Source of the DNA: Candidatus Peribacteraceae bacterium
GTDB lineage: Bacteria > Patescibacteriota > Gracilibacteria > Peribacterales > Peribacteraceae
Direction: 5' to 3'
Assembly (NCBI GenBank): GCA_040081825.1
Contig: JBEBFT010000003.1
Location: forward strand, 17,204-81,203
Length of the DNA stretch: 64,000 nt
The position numbers were made by a program, and so were the translations under genes. This document shows, one piece after another, positions 5,121-63,510 of this stretch (positions are counted from its first letter, which is position 1; every line of letters begins with the position of its first letter). The notes under the pieces were generated by a model, which saw only the letters and a list, made by a program, of their open reading frames with translations, did no database searches and had not been told where the DNA came from.

Positions 5121-5168
5121 CGATGGAAATTGTGCGTTTAATTCGGTAAAGAAGCAAACGTTCTCTTT

Positions 5169-5197
5169 CCACCCTCTTTTGACGCAAAAGAGGGTGG
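5169..5197. other. Perfect 12-bp hairpin in the divergent aguB / DHS-like promoter region
   Basis: CCACCCTCTTTT-gacgc-AAAAGAGGGTGG. Confidence 0.5.
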
Positions 5198-5219
5198 AGC
5201 CCAGAAAACAGTCGCTTAT

Positions 5220-5345
5220 GAAAAATTGCTACGGTTCAATCGCAACTCCGCTGCAAACGCGGACTCGCCCCTCGCCCCCGGCATCGGGGCTCAGACATGC
5301 GCGTTTGCGACGCTTCGTTCGCGAAGAACCGTAACGCAATTTTTC
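5220..5345. other. About 126-nt multi-stem structure (closing stem plus inner helices)
   Basis: GAAAAATTGCTACGGTTC (5220-5237) pairs with GAACCGTAACGCAATTTTTC (5326-5345). Inner helix GCAAACGCG (5253-5261) pairs with CGCGTTTGC (5300-5308). An apical hairpin CCCCG-gcat-CGGGG lies inside. Confidence 0.45.
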
Positions 5346-8905: not shown

Positions 8906-8935
8906 TGTAGAGACGCAAAATCTTGCGTCTCTACA
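8906..8935. terminator. Bidirectional hairpin between convergent genes
   Basis: Perfect 13-bp stem TGTAGAGACGCAA-aatc-TTGCGTCTCTACA. Confidence 0.6.
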
Positions 8936-8996: not shown

Positions 8997-9458
8997 CTAC
9001 AGCTTCCAATCGGTCTTCTCGCACTCTTGAGATCGCACAGTCCGGAGGTTCTCCTGAACCCACGGGGCATCGAGGAGCTCTGAGAGGGGTTCAAGTACGA
9101 AGCGTCGTTCCTTCATTCTGGGGTGGGGAACGGTGAGCGTGTCGGTGTGTATCGTGTCGTCTCCGAAGAGGAGAAGATCCAGATCGATCGTGCGTGGGCC
9201 AAAGCGTTCGGTGATGTTTTTGCCAAGTGACGCTTCGATCATGTCGAGCGTCTGCCTGATGACTTCGGGGCTGAGACTTGTCTCGAACCGAGCTACAGCA
9301 TTCAGAAACTCAGGCTGATCGGTGATGTGTCTCGGTGCGCTCGTATACACAGAAGAAAACTCGATCTCTGGCCATGCTTGCCGGAGCAGATCTGCCGCTG
9401 ACTCCAGATTTTCCTCGGCATCGATATTGGAGCCGAGGCCGAGGTAGACCGACTTCAT
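8997..9458 (-). CDS. folK: 2-amino-4-hydroxy-6-hydroxymethyldihydropteridine pyrophosphokinase
   Basis: VYLGLGSNI, GPRTIDLDLLLFG and LTVPHPRMKERRFVLEPL. Confidence 0.9.
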   Translation of the reverse strand: MKSVYLGLGSNIDAEENLESAADLLRQAWPEIEFSSVYTSAPRHITDQPEFLNAVARFETSLSPEVIRQTLDMIEASLGKNITERFGPRTIDLDLLLFGDDTIHTDTLTVPHPRMKERRFVLEPLSELLDAPWVQENLRTVRSQECEKTDWKL

Positions 9459-9589
9459 ACGGCTTCGCGAAGAAAGTACAATGATTCTTTTTCTCTTGCT
9501 TTACTCATATCGGCGCAGCGATATCGCTTTGCCGATATAGTATTTTTTCTACTTGCAACGGGCGTTGATGCGTATGTGCGGAGCCGTAT
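9457..9589 (-). other. folB-folK spacer enclosed by a 12-bp long-range stem with a nested palindrome
   Basis: ATACGGCTTCGC (9457-9468, overlapping the folK ATG) pairs with GCGGAGCCGTAT (9578-9589, abutting the folB stop). Inner ATATCGGC (9507-9514) pairs with GCCGATAT (9531-9538) around the 12-bp palindrome AGCGATATCGCT. Confidence 0.45.
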
Positions 9590-13126: not shown

Positions 13127-14071
13127 CTACTTTCTGAGCACCGTCCCTGCCCGAAGCATTTTTCCTTCCAGATCGATCCCTTCGAGTGTGCAGCCAGTAT
13201 CAACGATGCACTCACGCAGCACGCAATTGTTGATGGTTGTATCTCCAAAGACGATGCAGTCACTGAGAATCGAGTTCGTCACGGTCGTCCCAGCACCCAG
13301 ATCCACACTTCCATGACATTCTGTGCCTTCTATTTGTACTCCCGGTGCCTTCAAAACCTTTTCTCCCACCAGGGAACGATGAAGATCCAGATACGCCTCG
13401 AATGAACCGATGTCTTTCCAGAGTTCTGTGAACGTAAAACAATCAATCGTTGTGTTTTGTCTGAGTAGTTCCTCGAAAATGCCACCGATGTTATCGGGGT
13501 GCGTCTTGGCGTAGTCAGTGAGGATCGGCAGGGTTGCGCGAGGCAGGATCGACCAGCCAGTGGAGATGATGGTCGAGCGGGGATTCATCGGTTTTTCTTC
13601 GAAGCTCTGTACGGTTCCATCTCCGTTCATGACGACGGTACCGAAACTACTGGCTGCTTCTATAGAACCGATGTCGTATCCCGCGATCAGCGTCCTTCCT
13701 TTATATGCGCTCAGAAACTGAGACATCGGACAGCCGACAAAGTTATCGCCTGCGAGGAGCAGGATGTCATCGTCGATCTTCTGATTCAGAATCCACGCAC
13801 GCACAGCACCCAGTGCACCCAGCTTCTGACTGTCGTGCCCTGCATCTTCGATGAGGATCTCGACATCGCGACCGACCGTCTTTTTCCATGCACCGAAATC
13901 ATCAGCAAATGCAGCATTCGTACTGAGCGTGATCGGGATGTCCTTTGGGATTTGATGAGCGAGATACGACACGAGTGGTTTCCCTGCGACGGGAAGCAGT
14001 GGCTTCGCACGCTTCTCGGTCAGTGGCCAGAGACGAGTGGCAAATCCGCCGGCGAGAATGAAAGCTTTCAT
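13127..14071 (-). CDS. Sugar-1-phosphate nucleotidyltransferase with C-terminal left-handed beta-helix
   Basis: MKAFILAGGFATRLWPLTEKRAKPLLPVAGKPLV and LLLAGDNF. The C-terminus has hexapeptide-like repeats. Confidence 0.8.
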   Translation of the reverse strand: MKAFILAGGFATRLWPLTEKRAKPLLPVAGKPLVSYLAHQIPKDIPITLSTNAAFADDFGAWKKTVGRDVEILIEDAGHDSQKLGALGAVRAWILNQKIDDDILLLAGDNFVGCPMSQFLSAYKGRTLIAGYDIGSIEAASSFGTVVMNGDGTVQSFEEKPMNPRSTIISTGWSILPRATLPILTDYAKTHPDNIGGIFEELLRQNTTIDCFTFTELWKDIGSFEAYLDLHRSLVGEKVLKAPGVQIEGTECHGSVDLGAGTTVTNSILSDCIVFGDTTINNCVLRECIVDTGCTLEGIDLEGKMLRAGTVLRK

Positions 14072-14083
14072 TGAGGGTAGTTT

Positions 14084-14185
14084 AGCACCTCACCCCAATC
14101 AGCCCCGCATATGCGGGGCTGATTACCCCTCTCCGCTGTAGCGGAGAGGGGAAGACTTGCCGAAGGCAAGTCGGGGTGAGGTGCT
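14084..14185. repeat. Perfect 102-nt four-way cloverleaf of palindromes
   Basis: The outer 13-bp stem is 14084-14096 / 14173-14185. It encloses a 28-nt perfect palindrome (14097-14124), an 11-bp hairpin (14126-14151) and an 8-bp hairpin (14154-14172). No stem has a mismatch, and linkers are 0-2 nt. Confidence 0.75.
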
Positions 14186-14958
14186 TACTCCCTAATCATC
14201 GCCATCGCTTGCCCCTCAATCCGCACGAATTCCTCATTCTTTCCAAAGATTCCCAGCACCGAGGGGAGTAAGCAGTACGTGATCCCGTGATTGCGACAGA
14301 CGGAAATCAGGTTGATCGTGTGTTCAAGTGTCGAGGCCTGCACGAGAAACTTAGGTTTAACTTTTTTGATCGTCTCTTCCAGGACATTCAGCTTCCCGAG
14401 CACTGGCACACCCGCGATGTCCTTCTTCGATGTTCCTTGTGCGTCCAGAACTGCAACAGGTTTCAGTGGAGACTGTTTTTCATTGAGATGTCTGATCAAG
14501 TTCTCGGCATCGCGATTGGCACCGATGATGAGCACTGGGTACGCAGCAGGTTCACGCCTGAGAATGCGTCTCTGCCATGCGTCGAAAGCCAGATGCCAGA
14601 GTAGTGTCAGCACGAAGCTGAGTACGCCTGCGTAGACCAGAAGCAGGCGACTGAAGAATCGGTCGTGCAAGAAGTAGTACGCGAGCGTGAAGAGTGCGGA
14701 CGCGATGATGCAGCTAAACAGGATGTACAAAATATTCCTGAGTTCGGTCTGCACCCGGATCAAGCGAAAGACACCCAGCTCCGCCAGTACCAGTAGCCAC
14801 ACGGGCGTGATGATGATGACGGTTTGCAAATACAGATTGAGCGGAAAGTCAGTCGATACGATGAACCCGACGCGCAAAAAATATGCAGCAGCATACGCAC
14901 CGACGAGCAGTACAGCATCGGTGATGAGCCAAAGAGTCAGGAGGACGGTGCGGCGCAT
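14185..14958 (-). pseudogene. Truncated polyprenyl-phosphate glycosyl-phosphotransferase (TM plus CoA-binding-like domains only)
   Basis: The N-terminal four TM helices and VLIIGANRDAENL...VAVLDAQG...GVPVLG match WbaP-type sugar transferases. The ORF stops at 257 aa, before the Bac_transf catalytic domain. The stop codon overlaps the cloverleaf stem. Confidence 0.6.
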
Positions 14959-27983: not shown

Positions 27984-28060
27984 AGTAGATAGTGGTTAGT
28001 GGGTAGTTCACACATGCGTTTTCTCCGCACTAGCCCCTAACCACTACCTACTAGCCACTA
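27984..28060. repeat. Heptad palindrome, AGTGGNT family (copy a)
   Basis: Left arm AGTAGAT AGTGGTT AGTGGGT AGTTCAC, right arm ACTAGCC CCTAACC ACTACCT ACTAGCC ACTAT. The right arm supplies the last codons and the stop (..IVASR*) of the GT2 gene. Confidence 0.7.
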
Positions 28061-28898
28061 TTTTGGGTTTACCTGCCATCACCCCCCACTTCCAAAAATA
28101 CTTCACCGCACTTGCAATATGTGTGCGACCAACAGGGCTCATGACAAGCGACCATGGCCCACCTTCGCTGAGGCGACTTTTGCGATCGGTGCCCGTAATC
28201 GATGGTGCGTACACGACACGTTTGCCTGCTTGCCAGACACGACGACAGAGATCGATGTCCTCGAAGAAAAGGAAGAAGCGCGGATCGAACCCCCCGATCT
28301 CAGTGAACAGATCTTTGCGAATCATCAGACACCCACCTGCGATCCAGTCAGAGTCGCGTTCGGATTCTGGATCACGATCCATATCCAGATAGCGACGCAT
28401 GCGACTAGGGAACCAACGCTTCAAAAATGTTCGCTTGCTGATGACATCCAGAGGACGTGGGAACGCTCTGGATGATTCTCGTACTGAGCCATCGGGATGG
28501 ATGAGCTTTGGTGCGATGATGCCAATCATCGGATCTTCCTGCATTTTTTTGACCATCTTTTCGACGCCAGTTTGTTCCAGCATCTTCACAGGATTATTAA
28601 TGAGAATGAACTGGCCTCGCGCCTGACGGATGCCCTCGTCATATCCTGTTCCAAATCCGAGGTTTGCTCTCGTCTCGACGATACGAACTGGTAATCCACG
28701 CAGGTTCGCACGCAAAAAGCCGATCGATTCACTATCCGAGTGATTATCGATCACGATGATCTCCATGTGATCGGCAATGCTTTGCTTCAGTAGTTGCGTA
28801 GCGCTGGCAACTGTCGCTCGGTGGGAGCGAAAATTGAGAATGACGGCCGAAACGAGGGGCGAATGAATAATTGACAATTGATAATTGATAATGACCAC
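28044..28898 (-). CDS. Family-2 glycosyltransferase
   Basis: VSAVILNFRS, IVIDNHSDSES, FILINNPV and FFLFFEDIDLCRR. GTG start. The first 13 codons (MVIINYQLSIIHS) lie in an AT-rich heptad repeat. Confidence 0.78.
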   Translation of the reverse strand: MVIINYQLSIIHSPLVSAVILNFRSHRATVASATQLLKQSIADHMEIIVIDNHSDSESIGFLRANLRGLPVRIVETRANLGFGTGYDEGIRQARGQFILINNPVKMLEQTGVEKMVKKMQEDPMIGIIAPKLIHPDGSVRESSRAFPRPLDVISKRTFLKRWFPSRMRRYLDMDRDPESERDSDWIAGGCLMIRKDLFTEIGGFDPRFFLFFEDIDLCRRVWQAGKRVVYAPSITGTDRKSRLSEGGPWSLVMSPVGRTHIASAVKYFWKWGVMAGKPKIVASR

Positions 28899-28941
28899 AG
28901 CATAGTATCAATTATTCCATTATTCATTATCAATTATTCAT
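28862..28941. repeat. AT-rich heptad palindrome, AATTGAT/AATGAAT family (copy a)
   Basis: Left arm AATGAAT AATTGAC AATTGAT AATTGAT AATGACC (28862-28896), right arm ATCAATT ATTCCAT TATTCAT TATCAAT TATTCAT (28907-28941). It fills the whole GT2/uvrC divergent spacer. Confidence 0.7.
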
Positions 28942-28942
28942 T

Positions 28943-47670: not shown

Positions 47671-47738
47671 TGCGTATTTTTACAGTTTTCCCGCTGAATA
47701 CTTATCTATCACTTCAGCGCGCCTTTCCAAGGCGCATA

Positions 47739-47757
47739 CGCGGCTCGGAGAGCCGCG
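47739..47757. other. Hairpin after the pcrA stop
   Basis: CGCGGCTC-gga-GAGCCGCG, the same arms as the uvrC terminator hairpin. Confidence 0.45.
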
Positions 47758-47766
47758 CTGAGGTGA

Positions 47767-49998
47767 TTAATGTGCGATCTTGATCGGTGCGATGCCGACT
47801 GCCAGCTTTTTCGTCTGGCCGGCGTCGAATTTCACATCGATCACATCTCCGCTGCGCCTGAGTACCGTGCCAATACCGAGTGTTTTGTGCTCGATCCGCG
47901 TTCCTTCTTCTAGTGCATGCTCCAGATGCTCCATCCAGTCCTGGTTTTCATCTTCCGCCTCGAATCCGTGACTGATGCGGGGGCGTGCCACCGGCTTCGG
48001 AGCGGGGGAGTGACTGCTCGCGATCCAGGCGTAGCGACTGGTCATGCTGTCACTCTGCGGTTCGATGACTGCGACTGGCACGTCATCTAAGAATCGGCTT
48101 CTCAGATTTTGCTGTGTGTTACCCCACAGCGTTCTTTGCATTGCATAGAGCAATGTCAGATGTGATTTCGCTCGTGTCATGCCGACGTACATGAGGCGCC
48201 TCTCCTCTTCCAGCTGCTCGCGATCGAAATCCGCCGAACTATGTGGGAGTAGTCCCTCTTCACACCCGACAATCGTGACACGCTCGAACTCCAATCCTTT
48301 GCAGAGATGCAGCGTCATGAGTGTCAGCGCATCGCTTCCTATTCCCACATTATCGGTTTCGGAAATCAGTGATACTTCTTCCAGGAAACTCATGAGTGAT
48401 TCCTGTGGCAACAGGTGATCGTACTTCTTTGTCACGGAGAGCAGTTCCTGCACGTTCTCCCAACGCGTCTCGCCTTCTTCAGTGTCATCTCGCAGCCATG
48501 ACTCAAGACCGATGTCATGGATGATGACGCGCGTGAGTTCGCCTACCGTGTGCGTCTCCGCCTTGGCGCGGAATTGCACGATTTTCTCGCGGAAGTCACT
48601 GAGCCTGCGTATTGTGGGTTCATTCAGTTCCGGAATCGACGCCACTTCGCCAAGCGATCCCCAGAGCGAGATCGCACGATCGTTTGCGAATTGCTGCAGC
48701 TTCTCGAGCGTCGTCGCACCGATCTTTCTGGATGGCACGTTGATGATTCTGAGTAAGGCAATCGTATCCTGCGGATTCTGCACGAGCGAAAGATAGGCGA
48801 GCACATCTTTCACTTCTCTACGTGCGTAAAATTTCACTCCTCCGATAATGCGATACGGTACACCCGCGCGCATGCATGCTTCTTCCAGCAGACGTGACTG
48901 CGCATTCGTGCGGTAGAGAACGACCTGATCTTGTAACGGGATAGCGTTACGCACTTGTTGTACCGATGCCTCAACTGCGAGCTCGGCTTCGCGGCGTTCG
49001 TCCGATACTTCACGCACCAGTACCTTTGCGCCATCGGTACGATCGGTCCACATCTTCTTCTTCGGACGATTGGGATTCACTTGGATCACTCCGTCTGCTG
49101 CGTCCAGCACTTGCTGCGTTGATCTGTAGTTTCGTTCCAGCTTGATCGCTACGGCATCGCCGTACTCTTTCGTAAAATCCAGAATGTTCCTGATGTCCGC
49201 TCCGCGAAATGCGTAGATGGACTGATCTGGGTCACCAATCACGCACAGGTTACGGTGCTTACCGGCAAGAAGCTGCAGGAGTAGATACTGCACATGGTTC
49301 GTGTCCTGATACTCATCGACGTGTAGGTACTTCCACGTATTCTGATATCGCTCCAGCACCTGAGGGTGACTACGAAACAGGCGCACAGTCAGTAGGAGCA
49401 GGTCATCGAAGTCGACGGCGTTACTGGTTTTCAGCATCTCGTTATAGGTCTGATAGACAGCGACGATTTTCAGTTCATCACCCGAGACTGCTTTCACTTT
49501 GGCTTCACTGGGCTCTATCGCTTCGGATTTATATCGACTGATGTGTCCGAGCGCGGTTTTGGGTTTCATTTCCTCGGGTGCAATCTTATGAAATGCGAGC
49601 GCCTCCTTCATCAGCTTCTCCTGATCGTCCGAGTCGTAGATGACGAAGTCTCGGTTTCGCCCGATGTGTTCGATATCGCGTCTCAGGATCCGTACACAGA
49701 TGGAGTGGAACGTTCCTGATACCGGCAGGTGTGTGGGGTCCGTTCCCTGTTCGCTACTCAGCTTCAGAATGCGTGCAATGCGCTCCTTCAGTTCCTTCGC
49801 GGCACGGTTGGTAAATGTGACTGCCAGAATTTCCCACGGACGAACGCCCTGATTCATCAGGTACGCGATGCGATGCGTAATCGTGCGCGTCTTGCCTGAT
49901 CCCGCACCGGCGAGGATGAGCACGGGTCCATGCAGTGTTTCCACAGCCCGTTTCTGTTCGTCATTGAGGCCGGAGAAGATGGGATCAATTACCTGCAT
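47767..49998 (-). CDS. pcrA: UvrD/PcrA-type ATP-dependent DNA helicase
   Basis: LNDEQKRAVE, AGAGSGKTRTITHR, VDEYQDTN, RNYRST, VLYRTNAQSR and LMTLHLCKGLEF. Confidence 0.9.
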   Translation of the reverse strand: MQVIDPIFSGLNDEQKRAVETLHGPVLILAGAGSGKTRTITHRIAYLMNQGVRPWEILAVTFTNRAAKELKERIARILKLSSEQGTDPTHLPVSGTFHSICVRILRRDIEHIGRNRDFVIYDSDDQEKLMKEALAFHKIAPEEMKPKTALGHISRYKSEAIEPSEAKVKAVSGDELKIVAVYQTYNEMLKTSNAVDFDDLLLLTVRLFRSHPQVLERYQNTWKYLHVDEYQDTNHVQYLLLQLLAGKHRNLCVIGDPDQSIYAFRGADIRNILDFTKEYGDAVAIKLERNYRSTQQVLDAADGVIQVNPNRPKKKMWTDRTDGAKVLVREVSDERREAELAVEASVQQVRNAIPLQDQVVLYRTNAQSRLLEEACMRAGVPYRIIGGVKFYARREVKDVLAYLSLVQNPQDTIALLRIINVPSRKIGATTLEKLQQFANDRAISLWGSLGEVASIPELNEPTIRRLSDFREKIVQFRAKAETHTVGELTRVIIHDIGLESWLRDDTEEGETRWENVQELLSVTKKYDHLLPQESLMSFLEEVSLISETDNVGIGSDALTLMTLHLCKGLEFERVTIVGCEEGLLPHSSADFDREQLEEERRLMYVGMTRAKSHLTLLYAMQRTLWGNTQQNLRSRFLDDVPVAVIEPQSDSMTSRYAWIASSHSPAPKPVARPRISHGFEAEDENQDWMEHLEHALEEGTRIEHKTLGIGTVLRRSGDVIDVKFDAGQTKKLAVGIAPIKIAH

Positions 49999-50018: not shown

Positions 50019-50078
50019 AATTGATAATTAATAATGAACAATGAATAATTATTCATTATCAATTATTCATTATTCATT
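50019..50078. repeat. AT-rich heptad palindrome, AATTGAT/AATGAAT family (copy b)
   Basis: AATTGAT AATTAAT AATGAAC AATGAAT - AATT - ATTCATT ATCAATT ATTCATT ATTCATT. The arms match at 24 of 30 positions. 50049-50071 is identical to 28920-28942. Confidence 0.7.
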
Positions 50079-57515: not shown

Positions 57516-60269
57516 ATGCTCGATAAGGCTTATAATCCACAGGCAGTCGAAGATGCGCTTTACAAGAAGTGGGAGGAGAGCGGGGCCTTTCGTCCTGAAT
57601 CGTGTGACCCAAAGGGTGAGCCCTTTACGATAGCAATGCCGCCACCGAATGCGACGGGGCAGCTGCATCTCGGACATGCGGTGATGCTCGCACTCCAGGA
57701 CATCTTCACGCGTTTTGCGCGAATGCGGGGTAAGAAGGCACTGTGGTTGCCGGGTACTGATCACGCAGCGATCGCGACCGAGAACGTTGTCATCAAGAAG
57801 CTGCAGAAAGAAGGCATGAAAGATCCGCGCAAAGAACTGGGGCGTGAGAAGTTGGTGCAGACGATTGCGGAGTTTGTCGAAGAGAGCAAAGCGACCATCC
57901 GTGGGCAGGTCAGAAAAATGGGTGCCAGCTGTGACTGGACTCGTGAACGCTACACATTTGAGCCGACACTCAACCGTGCGGTAAATGAAGTGTTTTGCAA
58001 AATGAAGAATGACGGACTCATCTATCGTGGGCATCGCATCGTGAACTGGGATCCGAAGTTGCAGACGACTGTTTCCGACGATGAGCTGGTATACAAGGAA
58101 GAGAAGGGTGCGTTCTATACGTTTCAGTACGGCCCGTTCCAGATCGGAACTGCCAGGCCTGAGACCAAATTCGGTGACAAGTACGTTGTGATGCATCCGA
58201 AAGACAAGAGGTACTCGAAATTCAAACATGGCGATTCATTCGATGCTGAGTGGATCAACGGTCCCGTGCGTGCGACGGTTATTAAAGATGAATCCATCGA
58301 TATGGAGTTCGGCACGGGTGTTATGACCATCACGCCGTGGCACGATCATACCGATTTTGAGATTGCAGAACGTCATGGCCTAGAAAAAGAACAGATCATT
58401 GACTTCCACGGTCGGCTTTTGGACGTCGCCGGTGAGTTCAAAGGCATGAAGATTGACGAAGCGCGTCCCCTCATCGTCGGAAAGCTTGCATCGAAAGGAC
58501 TGCTCGTGAAGACGGACGAGAACTATGTTCATAACAAGGCAGTCAGCCAGCGTGGCGGGGGATCGATCGAGCCACAGATCAAGTTACAGTGGTTCATCGA
58601 TGTGAAGAAGCAGGTTGTTCCTTGGAAGGGGCAGAAGATGAGCCTGAAGGAGATCATGCATGACGTGATTCATCATGGAGATATCAAGATCATTCCAGAT
58701 CGATTCAATAAAACGTATTTTCACTGGATCGATAATCTTCGTGACTGGTGTATCAGTCGCCAGATTTGGTGGGGACATCGAGTGCCGGTTTGGTATTGTG
58801 GGAAGTGTGTAGATGAAAAAGGAAAGTCGAAGGAAGTGATAAGTGGGGAGTGGTTAGTGGCTAGTACGGCTACTCATCACTCGCCACTAACCACTAACCA
58901 CTGTCCCGATTGTGGGAGTTCTATGGATCAGGATTCCGACACCCTCGACACATGGTTCAGCTCCGCGATGTGGACGTGGTCAACGCTACTTGATCCTCAA
59001 AAAGCAGCTGACCCAGCTTTGTCTCTTGCTGAAATGCTGAAGTCGAGTCCCGATTTTCAGAAATTTCATCCGACTTCGGTCATGGAAACGGGCTACGACA
59101 TTCTGTTTTTCTGGGTTGCACGCATGATTCTCATGACGACGTACGCGACAGGACAGATTCCATTTAAAACGGTGTACCTCCACGGACTCATTCGCACGCG
59201 TGATGGACGCAAGATGAGTAAGTCGGATCCGGATACGATGATCGATCCTCTGGATATGATCGCGAAGTACGGAGCAGATGCTCTGCGTCTCAGTATGATC
59301 GTCGGCCAAAGTCCGGGTAACGATTCTCGGCTCTACGAAGAGAAAATCGCGGGGTACCGAAACTTTATTAATAAGCTCTGGAATGCCAGTCGTTTTGTGC
59401 TGATGCAGTGTGAGGAGAAAGGTGTTGATCCCAAAAAAGTGGTCAGTGGTCAGTGGTCAGTGGATAGTTTGTCTTTAGCTGACCGGGCACTACTTCATAG
59501 CTTGCAAACGTTGATTGCTGATGTGACCAGTGGTCTGGAAACGTATGATCTGAGTGCGACGGGAGACCGGCTCTACAGCTTCGTGTGGGATTTCTTCTGC
59601 GACTGGTATTTGGAGCTCAGTAAAGGCGAAGCGAATCCCGAGGTGCTCGTCCATGCACTTCGAACGATCTTGCAGCTCCTGCATCCGTACTGTCCATTTG
59701 TGACCGAAGAGCTCTGGTCGCACGTAGGGCTGAAAGGCGCGCAGAGCCTGATAGCTCATCCGTGGCCTAAGGAAGAGAAAAAGCTGCATGACGAGAGTGC
59801 GTTTGCTGATTTGCACGTTATCATCGAAACGGTGACTGCGATCCGAAGACTGCGAGCAGAAAATGACATCGAAGCGGGTAAAAAAATTACGGTATTCATT
59901 CATTCCAAGAAACAAGTGGCCCTGCTTACATCACAGCAAGAACACTTGTTGCGCATGACCAATGCTGAGTCACTGACAATCGATGCGAAGTCAGCCAAGC
60001 ACGAAAATGCAGCGAGTGCCTTCCTGGCAGATATCGAGATTCATCTTTCGCTTGCGGGCCTCTTCGATCCTGTAAAACTCAAAGCGAGTCTCCTGAAGGA
60101 ACAGGCTGACCTCTCGAAGTATGTGACGATGCTCAAAGGAAAACTGAGTAACAATAGTTTTACTGACAAGGCTCCTCAGGAGCTCGTAGATGCCGAGAAA
60201 CAGAAACTAGAGGCGGCGGAGGAGAAGCTGAAGAAGATCGAGGAGAGACTACTTGGTATTACTGGCTGA
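57516..60269 (+). CDS. valS: Valyl-tRNA synthetase
   Basis: PPPNATGQLHLGH (HIGH), WCISRQIWWGHRVPVWYC, DTLDTWFSS, KMSKS, and a C-terminal coiled coil. Confidence 0.95.
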   Translation: MLDKAYNPQAVEDALYKKWEESGAFRPESCDPKGEPFTIAMPPPNATGQLHLGHAVMLALQDIFTRFARMRGKKALWLPGTDHAAIATENVVIKKLQKEGMKDPRKELGREKLVQTIAEFVEESKATIRGQVRKMGASCDWTRERYTFEPTLNRAVNEVFCKMKNDGLIYRGHRIVNWDPKLQTTVSDDELVYKEEKGAFYTFQYGPFQIGTARPETKFGDKYVVMHPKDKRYSKFKHGDSFDAEWINGPVRATVIKDESIDMEFGTGVMTITPWHDHTDFEIAERHGLEKEQIIDFHGRLLDVAGEFKGMKIDEARPLIVGKLASKGLLVKTDENYVHNKAVSQRGGGSIEPQIKLQWFIDVKKQVVPWKGQKMSLKEIMHDVIHHGDIKIIPDRFNKTYFHWIDNLRDWCISRQIWWGHRVPVWYCGKCVDEKGKSKEVISGEWLVASTATHHSPLTTNHCPDCGSSMDQDSDTLDTWFSSAMWTWSTLLDPQKAADPALSLAEMLKSSPDFQKFHPTSVMETGYDILFFWVARMILMTTYATGQIPFKTVYLHGLIRTRDGRKMSKSDPDTMIDPLDMIAKYGADALRLSMIVGQSPGNDSRLYEEKIAGYRNFINKLWNASRFVLMQCEEKGVDPKKVVSGQWSVDSLSLADRALLHSLQTLIADVTSGLETYDLSATGDRLYSFVWDFFCDWYLELSKGEANPEVLVHALRTILQLLHPYCPFVTEELWSHVGLKGAQSLIAHPWPKEEKKLHDESAFADLHVIIETVTAIRRLRAENDIEAGKKITVFIHSKKQVALLTSQQEHLLRMTNAESLTIDAKSAKHENAASAFLADIEIHLSLAGLFDPVKLKASLLKEQADLSKYVTMLKGKLSNNSFTDKAPQELVDAEKQKLEAAEEKLKKIEERLLGITG
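58835..58904 (+). repeat. Heptad palindrome, AGTGGNT family (copy c), translated inside valS
   Basis: Ten 7-nt units, including the perfect 13-bp inverted repeat AGTGGTTAGTGGC (58849-58861) / GCCACTAACCACT (58883-58895). Read as EVISGEWLVASTATHHSPLTTNHC. Confidence 0.75.
59438..59466 (+). repeat. Tandem heptads AGTGGTC x3 plus AGTGGAT inside valS (copy d, left arm only)
   Basis: AGTGGTCAGTGGTCAGTGGTCAGTGGAT is read as VVSGQWSVDS, parallel to SGEWLVAS in copy c. Confidence 0.65.
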
Positions 60270-62251: not shown

Positions 62252-62322
62252 GCGCGGGTCTGTAGACCCACGCATCGCAATATCTTGCGCCTTCACCGTA
62301 GCGCAGGTCTACTGACCTGCGC
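62252..62322. repeat. REP doublet downstream of RAYT-2
   Basis: GCGCGGGTC-tgta-GACCCACGC (62252-62273, one mismatch) and GCGCAGGTC-tact-GACCTGCGC (62301-22), in mutually inverted loop orientation. Confidence 0.7.
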
Positions 62323-62344: not shown

Positions 62345-62842
62345 TTATGTGACTAGCGAATCGTGTAGCGGTGTCACATCCCATTTTCTGGATGCTGAGG
62401 ACCATCGATATTCCTTTGGATCTTCAACCAATCCTGCATCGATGGGATTATGGTGAATGTATCGAAGTGCGTGCCACGGCTTGTCAGGAATCAGTATATG
62501 AAATCGTGGTTGCCACAGTTTTCCGTTACCAATCGCATATGTTACTCCCGCTTTATAGCTTTTCATGATGGATGAAATCTTTTCAGGCTTGCGAACACGT
62601 ATCAGAAAGTGGCAGTGGTCAGGCATGATGACAAAGCCATGTAAGAAAAAAGGTCGTAATGATTGCACACGGTACAAGCATTCAACAGCTTCACGGGCAA
62701 GGGCATCATCAAGGAAGTAGGGAATGCGATCACGTGTCACGGTTGTGATGAACATCACTGAATCATTCTGGATTGGATGTCTTTGGGTCATGAATGTATT
62801 GTGTGGATATTGATGACGCTTTGGAATCGTAGATGCACACAT
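62345..62842 (-). CDS. REP-associated tyrosine transposase (IS200-like HUH Y1 family)
   Basis: HUH motif MPDHCHFLIRV, WQPRFHILI, and the catalytic-Tyr block LRYIHHNPIDAGLV. The true start is probably Met 62791 (MTQRHPIQ...). Confidence 0.78.
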   Translation of the reverse strand: MCASTIPKRHQYPHNTFMTQRHPIQNDSVMFITTVTRDRIPYFLDDALAREAVECLYRVQSLRPFFLHGFVIMPDHCHFLIRVRKPEKISSIMKSYKAGVTYAIGNGKLWQPRFHILIPDKPWHALRYIHHNPIDAGLVEDPKEYRWSSASRKWDVTPLHDSLVT

Positions 62843-63049: not shown

Positions 63050-63424
63050 GCAGGCATTCAATCAATAGTCGCATAACAAAAAAGCCACCTGCGTGGCCTT
63101 TTTGTGTATGTGTTCGCCTCCTTAGCGATGAGTGAGCTCTGAAGATGAGAGTCATCACTCCGCCTACGAGCGGAGGGTGCACGGTGGGGGAGAAAGCCCC
63201 GATTCTCTGCCTTGCTCTGGCACTTATTTCTCCTCGCTACCTCACGAGGTCCCCGTACCGGTTCACACGCGGTGCATAAAGCGCCGGGAGAACACTGGGG
63301 AGGAAGGAATGCGCCCTCGTCACGATCTTTCTCTTTCGTACATGGGCGACATCGCAGAGCAGAGAGGATGGCAATCGCTGTGGATAATGAATGCAGCAAC
63401 GGCTGCTATCCTCTCTACGAAGAA

Positions 63425-63510
63425 GTACGTAGTACGTGGTATGTCGTACGTGGTATGAGAATTTTCTTTCGTTTCGTATACAACGTACTACGTACTACAT
63501 ACTCGATACT
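63425..63510. repeat. Heptad palindrome, GTACGTA/GTATGTA family
   Basis: Left arm GTACGTA GTACGTG GTATGTC GTACGTG GTATGAG, a 16-nt spacer, then right arm GTATACA ACGTACT ACGTACT ACATACT CGATACT. Confidence 0.65.

Follow-up and report, generated by a model that had tools for sequence, protein, structure and literature searches.

BoxC/PIT/TM motifs have been known since the 1990s, and to our knowledge there is no agreed function for them. They are not the only bacterial repeats that form hairpins. REP/BIME sequences are short intergenic palindromes that often lie right after stop codons and affect mRNA stability in E. coli; REPs occur in many near-identical copies, and these match the hairpins that flank their RAYT gene. 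Rickettsia palindromic elements (RPE) are hairpin-forming repeats able to insert in frame into protein-coding genes.

In the excerpts of Holder 2015 on which we draw, the BoxC/PIT/TMECO motif is given as CCCTCNCCC N3-6 GGGNGAGGG N3 GGGNGAGGG (PMC4666352). These excerpts count it 3,610 times in 262 proteobacterial genomes, mention related G/C-rich motifs that are abundant in cyanobacteria, and cite earlier BoxC/PIT work by Bachellier and by Hoyne/Maher (PMC4666352). In TMECO, the second G block is described as folding back onto the hairpin, antiparallel to its purine arm, which yields a purine-motif triplex. The same excerpts report a stable in vitro triplex for single-stranded TMECO DNA and a higher variability of TM loci from strain to strain (PMC4666352). 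In E. coli, neither duplex DNA nor in vivo footprinting revealed a triplex, and PIT elements had neither promoter nor terminator activity (PMC4666352). The E. coli motif is described there as always intergenic, and no phage association was found (PMC4666352). For E. coli, decay products such as partial deletions in which a hairpin survives have also been reported. Purine-motif triplexes do not form in RNA, as stated in the part of the literature excerpted here.

We analysed a 64 kb stretch of DNA (64,000 nucleotides, hereafter the window) from a drinking-water metagenome (X1), in which a 102-base palindromic cloverleaf stands out. Our preferred reading, to which we give a probability of about 0.6, is that the cloverleaf is a palindromic, two-sided variant of the BoxC/PIT/TMECO intrastrand-triplex repeat that was recently inserted between two genes of an operon.

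Results

Structure of the element

The initial annotation, made from the letters of the sequence, had described a mismatch-free four-way cloverleaf of 102 nucleotides, and folding with RNAfold bore this out, with a perfect junction on either strand. The 102 bases at 14084-14185 of the window read AGCACCTCACCCC + AATCAGCCCCGCATATGCGGGGCTGATT + A + CCCCTCTCCGCTGTAGCGGAGAGGGG + AA + GACTTGCCGAAGGCAAGTC + GGGGTGAGGTGCT, and the parts are listed in Table 1. With RNA parameters the four-way junction is predicted at -87.9 and -87.5 kcal/mol on the two strands (z -13.3 and -15.2), an energy that 0 of 200 shuffles matched; with DNA parameters the value is -53 kcal/mol (z -14). The junction contains no mismatch and no G-U pair. 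It counts 44 pairs if the loops are taken as 4 nt, and 46 if each palindrome is paired up to its centre. When segments of 110 nt were folded along the whole 64 kb, the cloverleaf reached -88.4 against a mean of -27.4 (sd 6.4) and a second-best peak of -50.5, which makes it by far the strongest structure in the window.

Sequence identical to the element is present in independent assemblies (X1/L001 and X2/X3, and partly X6). As these assemblies come from other samples, the cloverleaf is real and is not an assembly artefact. It fits a reading as a DNA cruciform or other non-B-DNA structure, and a G-quadruplex (Kaplan 2016) is possible as a two-tetrad structure only.

Set against MITEs, which have terminal inverted repeats, a target-site duplication and several copies with the same interior, the element has a terminal inverted repeat of 13 bp and is flanked on both sides by TAA in the window; no copy with the same interior turned up in the window or the X1 contigs. 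A target-site duplication (TAA + element + TAA) was considered and dropped, as it occurs in the window only: no TAA-type duplication was seen around the copies in a Peribacteria relative (L006) and in a metagenome contig (L085) that are described below. We likewise rejected the sequestration of a Shine-Dalgarno sequence (GAGGTG in the 3' arm), which fails on its spacing of 14-16 nt to the ATG.

Table 1. Positions of the element, its parts, the adjacent genes and the tandem-heptamer hairpins. Coordinates are those of the window unless a locus is named.
Feature	Position	Strand	Remarks
Whole element	14084..14185	both	two-sided (palindromic) triplex-motif repeat folding as four-way junction
Closing stem, 5' arm AGCACCTCACCCC	14084..14096	+	core CCTCACCCC at 14088-14096
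Hairpin A, AATCAGCCCCGC-ATAT-GCGGGGCTGATT	14097..14124	.	perfect 28-nt palindrome; minus-strand 'loop 2'; private to locus
Hairpin B, CCCCTCTCCGC-TGTA-GCGGAGAGGGG	14126..14151	both	C-rich and G-rich Watson-Crick blocks, common to both strands
Hairpin C, GACTTGCC-GAA-GGCAAGTC	14154..14172	.	plus-strand 'loop 2'; private to locus
Closing stem, 3' arm GGGGTGAGGTGCT	14173..14185	+	core GGGGTGAGG at 14173-14181 = third-strand block
Upstream gene, 257-aa CoA_binding_3 protein	14185..14958	-	full length; stop TAA 14187-14185
Downstream gene, 314-aa NTP_transferase	13127..14071	-	ATG at 14071
Tandem-heptamer hairpins, window	27984-28052, 28862-28942, 50019-50078, 58842-58902, 63424-63503		
Tandem-heptamer hairpins, relatives	L003:1165-1225; L144:8161-8270, 9281-9390		

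Other hairpins are frequent in this DNA. The window holds 19 perfect hairpins with a stem of at least 9 bp, against 2-3 in shuffles. The modules at 5220-5345 and 9457-9589, which had been singled out as similar to the cloverleaf, are real long hairpins (z -7.7 and -5.6), but they are imperfect and have no motif in common with the element. Within the second of them, positions 9459-9588 form a hairpin module of ~130 nt at the junction of the FolB and HPPK genes; as these two genes overlap or lie at most 30 nt apart in L003, L137, L141 and L144, this module also looks like an insertion at an operon junction. Three further perfect hairpins of 13-14 bp have unique sequences (5168-5198, 8906-8935 and 2578-2608). 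The first of these, with pyrimidine/purine arms CCACCCTCTTTT/AAAAGAGGGTGG, lies between divergently transcribed genes and so cannot be a terminator. A three-way junction that the initial annotation had not listed is found between convergent genes at 47708-47767, where a closing stem ATCACTTCAGCGC/GCGCTGAGGTGAT with one T-G pair surrounds two inner GC hairpins. Finally, several hairpins in the window and its relatives have arms of 3-4 tandem heptamers (e.g. AGTGGTT, AATTGAT) that face complementary heptamers, and the heptamer differs from site to site. Those of L003 and L144 sit at the junction that holds the cloverleaf in the window. We found no description of Peregrinibacteria/Peribacteria repeats, including these tandem-heptamer hairpins, in the literature searched.

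Private hairpins and a shared unit

The four arms were searched for one by one, as had been suggested in the initial annotation. With up to 3 mismatches allowed, the 64 kb contained no second copy of any of them. There was likewise no half-arm copy of hairpin C in the window and no exact copy of it in IMG/VR. Contigs of X1 and six other runs returned only the locus itself and its strain variants, in a search where matches below ~30 nt probably went unreported. Among 185,579 GTDB species representatives, which do not include the window's own genome, the 22-nt core of hairpin A has exactly 10 matches, one each in 10 unrelated genomes, and most of these sit between A-rich and T-rich flanks. To judge from its sequence, this core is a generic (bidirectional) terminator-type hairpin of convergent origin and belongs to no family. 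Hairpin B behaves differently from the other arms in that its stems, with any loop, are widespread in metagenomes (at least 120 contigs).

These metagenome contigs show what surrounds the middle hairpin elsewhere. Among the 125 matches listed, 90 have CCTCACCC upstream and/or GGGTGAGG downstream of hairpin B on the correct side, and boxes on the wrong side number 3 + 3. Taken by itself, CCTCACCC is on the correct side of a B-type hairpin in 51 of these 125 matches and on the wrong side in 3; in 23 of the 125, both boxes are present and pair as a closing stem. The distance between box and hairpin B is usually 3-4 nt in the metagenome matches listed. The presence of boxes beside hairpin B in 90 of 125 matches indicates that the closing stem and the middle hairpin belong together. 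We read the closing stem (CCTCACCCC/GGGGTGAGG) and the middle hairpin (CCCCTCTCC...GGAGAGGGG) as one co-evolving unit that comprises the three blocks of the BoxC/PIT/TMECO motif. The 9-nt blocks are kept in sequence across contigs that range from 33 to 74% GC.

The relation between the blocks is that of a putative third strand to its duplex. The block GGGGTGAGG mirrors the purine arm GGAGAGGGG (14143-14151). Set antiparallel to that arm, it gives allowed purine-motif triads at 9/9 positions (G*G, T*A, A*A) as read from the sequence, in the same pattern as E. coli TMECO; the third block is thus antiparallel and uses only G*G-C, A*A-T and T*A-T triads, as in the class II purine motif. Elsewhere, the lengths of the G-runs in purine arm and third block tend to agree at the mirror position (3/3 in 10, 4/4 in 6 and 5/5 in 75 of 126 cases among the matches listed), a correlation that is confounded by the kinship of the contigs and is gone in the short-linker subset (rho 0.17). 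These matched runs point to a mirror repeat and not to a direct repeat.

In the window, the motif is present on both strands (plus, 14127-14181; minus, 14088-14150), with three consecutive blocks that end in a second G-rich block of the GGGNGAGGG type on each. The 5' core CCTCACCCC is the complement of the minus-strand motif's third-strand block GGGGTGAGG. With a third block on either strand, these two blocks complement each other and so form the closing stem. Where the classical motif has a 3-nt linker, the plus strand has the perfect hairpin C and the minus strand the perfect hairpin A, so that a single strand folds four-way.

The published motif and its register

The strict published regular expression had 0 matches in the window and 155 kb of Peribacteria loci. 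The register is shifted in the window (GGAGAGGGG/GGGGTGAGG) relative to E. coli (GGGAGAGGG/GGGTGAGGG), so that the published expression fails; loop 2, with 21 and 29 nt, departs from it as well. The purine arm is displaced by one base, and the displacement is mirrored in the third block. A relaxed motif was matched 6 times (4 loci) in the 155 kb of Peribacteria DNA and 0 times in 100 dinucleotide-preserving shuffles; the 64 kb window contains one copy. The loops also set the element apart from the ITxF definition, which has short loops of 1-6 nt: loop 1 has 4 nt, and the place of loop 2 is taken by a hairpin. Long linkers occur elsewhere in a minority of matches, with linkers of ~16-32 nt in about 10% of the metagenome matches listed and of at least 18 nt in 3 of 161 matches in IMG/VR (~2%).

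These 161 occurrences of GGAGAGGGG-N-GGGGTGAGG in viral and proviral contigs of IMG/VR are spread over at least 111 stretches (e.g. L223, L156, L162), with up to 7 copies per stretch. In 99 of the 161 the linker between the G blocks is 3 nt long (TCG, CCG or TTA).

Other copies of the design

The four-way design recurs at a different locus of a syntenic Peribacteria relative (L006:252-366, -92 kcal/mol), whose homologue of the flanking 257-aa protein is 78% identical to that of the window. The closing stem GCCTCACCCC/GGGGTGAGGC and the central hairpin CCCCTCTC/GAGAGGGG are as in the window, and the two outer hairpins are of unrelated sequence. The genes beside this copy are convergent, and it adjoins the stop codon of each. 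An unrelated contig of 67% GC (L070) contains a four-way junction with hairpins in both linkers, L085 a three-way version, and L141 a copy with expanded loops. L085 and other low-GC metagenome contigs gave no tblastn match to the Peribacteria loci. Two-sided TM elements also occur in high-GC contigs from soil and sediment metagenomes, and we found no name for such elements in the literature searched.

The initial annotation had held that the element would be a one-off if each arm were unique in the genome and the locus absent from close relatives. Formally this applies to hairpins A and C and to the locus; the element nevertheless is no one-off, because the B hairpin and the closing-stem core belong to a widespread family.

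A compact TM, CCCTCTCCC-ATC-GGGAGAGGGG-CAG-GGGGTGAGG, was observed at L144:8755-8788 and also at L145:1605, in two independent assemblies. It lies in frame within the NTP-transferase gene, where it adds the peptide HPPSPIGRGAGGEG in a variable loop of the protein.

The gene junction in relatives

Both flanking genes are on the minus strand. The initial annotation placed the stop codon of the upstream gene inside the stem, and the two do overlap, but only by the last base of the TAA. The start of the nucleotidyltransferase gene does adjoin the stem, at 12 nt from the ATG and not 13. The upstream gene was also taken for a truncated sugar transferase, which is wrong: in a comparison resting on more than 100 homologues listed, protein length ranges from 241 to 293 aa and is mostly 255-260 aa, and CoA_binding_3 is again the single domain. 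Several of the listed homologues are labelled Candidatus Peribacteria or Peribacteraceae; Peribacteria are a class of the CPR phylum Peregrinibacteriota.

The junction itself differs from one relative to the next (percentages are amino-acid identities of the 257-aa protein). It is 5 nt long in L137 (73%) and L141 (70%), where it reads TAG-TTTTT-ATG, about 9 nt long in a relative from run X5, and 43 nt long and unstructured in L006 (78%). It holds unrelated hairpins made of tandem heptamers in L003 (86%) and L144 (72%), a simple GC hairpin in L005 (84%), and a different small hairpin in a second X2 strain. Among the relatives compared, the cloverleaf is at this junction only in the closest strains, X1, X2/X3 and X6. 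Comparing the locus across related genomes, a check that had been proposed with the initial annotation, found the element absent from the junction outside these strains. A junction of 5-10 nt or with unrelated hairpins in the relatives, and a cloverleaf confined to the closest strains, mark it as a recent insertion at a junction of fast turnover.

The same comparison supplies the main argument for the strongest rival explanation, in which selection maintains a hairpin cluster as terminator, attenuator or mRNA-stabilising barrier, any strong hairpin would serve, and the likeness to TM sequences is incidental. What makes it the strongest is that the closest relatives all keep some hairpin at the junction: hairpins of unrelated sequence are found in the three closest (L003, L005 and the second X2 strain), and the more distant L144 has one too. 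The position of the L006 copy at two convergent stop codons fits such a role, as do the junction-type modules between convergent genes of the window at 8906-8935 and 47708-47767, and clusters of hairpins have been proposed as terminators (PMC8355165, in the excerpt used here). However, no T/U tract follows the stem on either strand, a consensus terminator scan does not call the element, and the relatives with a 5-nt junction do without any hairpin. The lack of terminator activity of E. coli PIT/BoxC elements, as given in the excerpts cited above, also counts against a terminator, as does the compact copy within a coding gene of L144, and the conservation of the 9-nt blocks between contigs of such different GC is left unexplained. 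A search for RNA-seq runs containing the sequence returned none. We consider this explanation unlikely, if a serious one.

A further possibility, which we regard as improbable, is that two-sided TMs with hairpin-filled linkers constitute a distinct element, a four-way junction whose core is fixed and whose outer arms are free, and which is kept by selection or spread by a mechanism that targets sites near stop codons and can even insert in frame into genes. A DNA junction or triplex that is recognised by a replication or recombination factor could be one example. Such elements are known from the window, one Peribacteria relative and one unrelated high-GC contig. If this possibility were true, it would give the 30-year-old BoxC/PIT motif a mechanism.

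A transposase gene with REP-like flanks

The window contains a RAYT/REP-like module in a CPR genome (62252-63049). An ORF of 165 aa on the minus strand (62345-62842) encodes a Y1_Tnp protein (IS200-like, PF01797; E 2.5e-7), and the palindrome GCGCRGGTC-N4-GACCYGCGC occurs at 62252, 62301, 62851 and 63028. No further copy of this palindrome was found in the rest of the window or in the other loci searched.

The initial annotation had raised the possibility of a nested insertion of REP-like palindromes into a terminator hairpin, and that of a recognition site for an HUH transposase. In this explanation, independent mobile palindromes would have entered a prior hairpin, moved by an HUH (Y1/RAYT) transposase that acts on single-stranded hairpins. 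A Y1_Tnp gene flanked by four REP-like palindromes is indeed encoded in the window, modules of a closing stem with inner hairpins recur in this genome, and hairpins A and C sit flush in the loop positions. But the REP-like sequence beside the transposase gene resembles neither the closing stem nor any of the hairpins A, B and C, and it does not occur in the other loci searched; it lends the idea of a recognition site no support. No second copy of any arm exists in the window, and no second X1 contig matches the element over more than a short stretch. The core of hairpin A, single in each of 10 unrelated genomes and of a generic terminator type, represents no family, and the closing stem and hairpin B occur together as a unit in many unrelated contigs. 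Part of the idea survives, in that A and C are private inserts in a larger unit; the closing stem and B are one BoxC/PIT/TM unit, not a terminator plus a REP. As a whole, we hold nested insertion of mobile palindromes to be quite improbable.

The weakest rival, a functional structured RNA on one strand (tRNA-like, riboswitch, ribozyme or protein-binding four-way junction), of the kind that the initial annotation had entertained, could appeal to the extremely stable fold and to the return of the four-way architecture in L006 and L070, but we consider it very unlikely, close to negligible: the element belongs to no Rfam family (best match sX4, 14.1 bits against a gathering score of 70; at gathering thresholds, Rfam over the window yields only two ordinary tRNAs, elsewhere), ARAGORN calls no tRNA or tmRNA, the structure is equally perfect on both strands without G-U pairs, hardly any nucleotides stay unpaired that could make up a conserved core, two inner hairpins out of three have unrelated sequences from copy to copy, and among the matches listed most members of the family have one box and no junction. 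As the outer hairpins are not conserved, conservation lends a structured RNA no support.

Discussion

The element is no new RNA gene and no stack of independent palindromes. Under our preferred reading, a two-sided BoxC/PIT/TMECO variant was inserted recently between the stop codon of the 257-aa gene and the start of the NTP-transferase gene. In the mRNA, it would form an extremely stable junction right after the stop codon and uncouple the two cistrons; there it may also shield the 3' end of the upstream message or hinder the polymerase. Unwound DNA of the element would fold into a hairpin or cruciform, perhaps also into a purine-motif triplex. Stalled replication and local indels may result from such structures and would account for the fast turnover at the junction. 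Stalling and small rearrangements at such structures fit both the variability of TM loci in E. coli and the turnover seen here. The DNA-level mechanism has to be called putative even for the type member, given that no triplex was detected in E. coli duplex DNA or in vivo. Most likely, the element is a non-coding repeat prone to form structure, with no gene-like function of its own.

The finding bears on how the motif is understood and annotated. The motif lies here in a CPR bacterium of tiny genome whose genes are closely spaced, with 5-10 nt at junctions in relatives; a neutral insert of 100 nt should not last long in such a genome. The purine arm and the third block shift register together, in mirror fashion, in contigs of widely differing G+C; this is comparative support for an antiparallel triplex geometry, and a simple direct repeat fits it badly. 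The replacement of the 3-nt linker by a whole hairpin on both strands makes the element a natural construct for setting triplex against four-way junction. For annotators, the reading accounts for a 'cloverleaf' that might otherwise pass for a new RNA gene. As far as the excerpted literature allows the comparison, BoxC/TM motifs are extended here to a CPR lineage, with examples of linkers filled by hairpins and of a coding insertion in frame; what the motif does is not revealed by the element itself.

How, then, does the element compare with known systems? It resembles REP/BIME sequences as a short intergenic palindrome with a RAYT-like gene and REP-like flanks in the same window, but unlike REPs it has no near-identical copies, nor does it match the hairpins that flank the Y1 gene. 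With RPE it shares the in-frame placement, as seen in the compact TM within the NTP-transferase gene of L144/L145; the sequences are unrelated, however, and the copy in the window is intergenic.

The high-GC two-sided TM elements are closer. There, too, terminal inverted boxes (GT)CCTCACCCCC...GGGGGTGAGG(AC) form a closing stem that encloses B-type hairpins, and in the high-GC contigs L040, L119 and L133 a single central hairpin is shared, as in the window. Most of these elements have two B-type hairpins with a spacer of 40-80 nt and runs of 5 G, whereas the window has one B hairpin, runs of 4 G and two private hairpins.

With BoxC/PIT/TMECO, finally, the element shares three blocks: one rich in C, the G-rich block that is its Watson-Crick complement, and a further G-rich block GGG(G)TGAGG that mirrors the first G-rich one. 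Like those motifs, as far as the excerpts of Holder 2015 describe them, it is intergenic, present or absent between close strains and without a link to a transposase, and inverted 'palindromic' pairs are described for E. coli TMECO as well. The arrangement of the pairs differs: the two inverted motifs of the window share one central hairpin and have their third-strand blocks outermost, whereas in E. coli TMECO 1 + 2 (Table 1 of that paper, as excerpted) the third-strand blocks face each other centrally. The second loop, 3 nt in TMECO, is a perfect hairpin of 21 nt (C) or 29 nt (A) here, linker bases included. The host is a member of the Peribacteria (CPR), and among the organisms that the excerpts of PMC4666352 name for TMECO we found no CPR bacterium.
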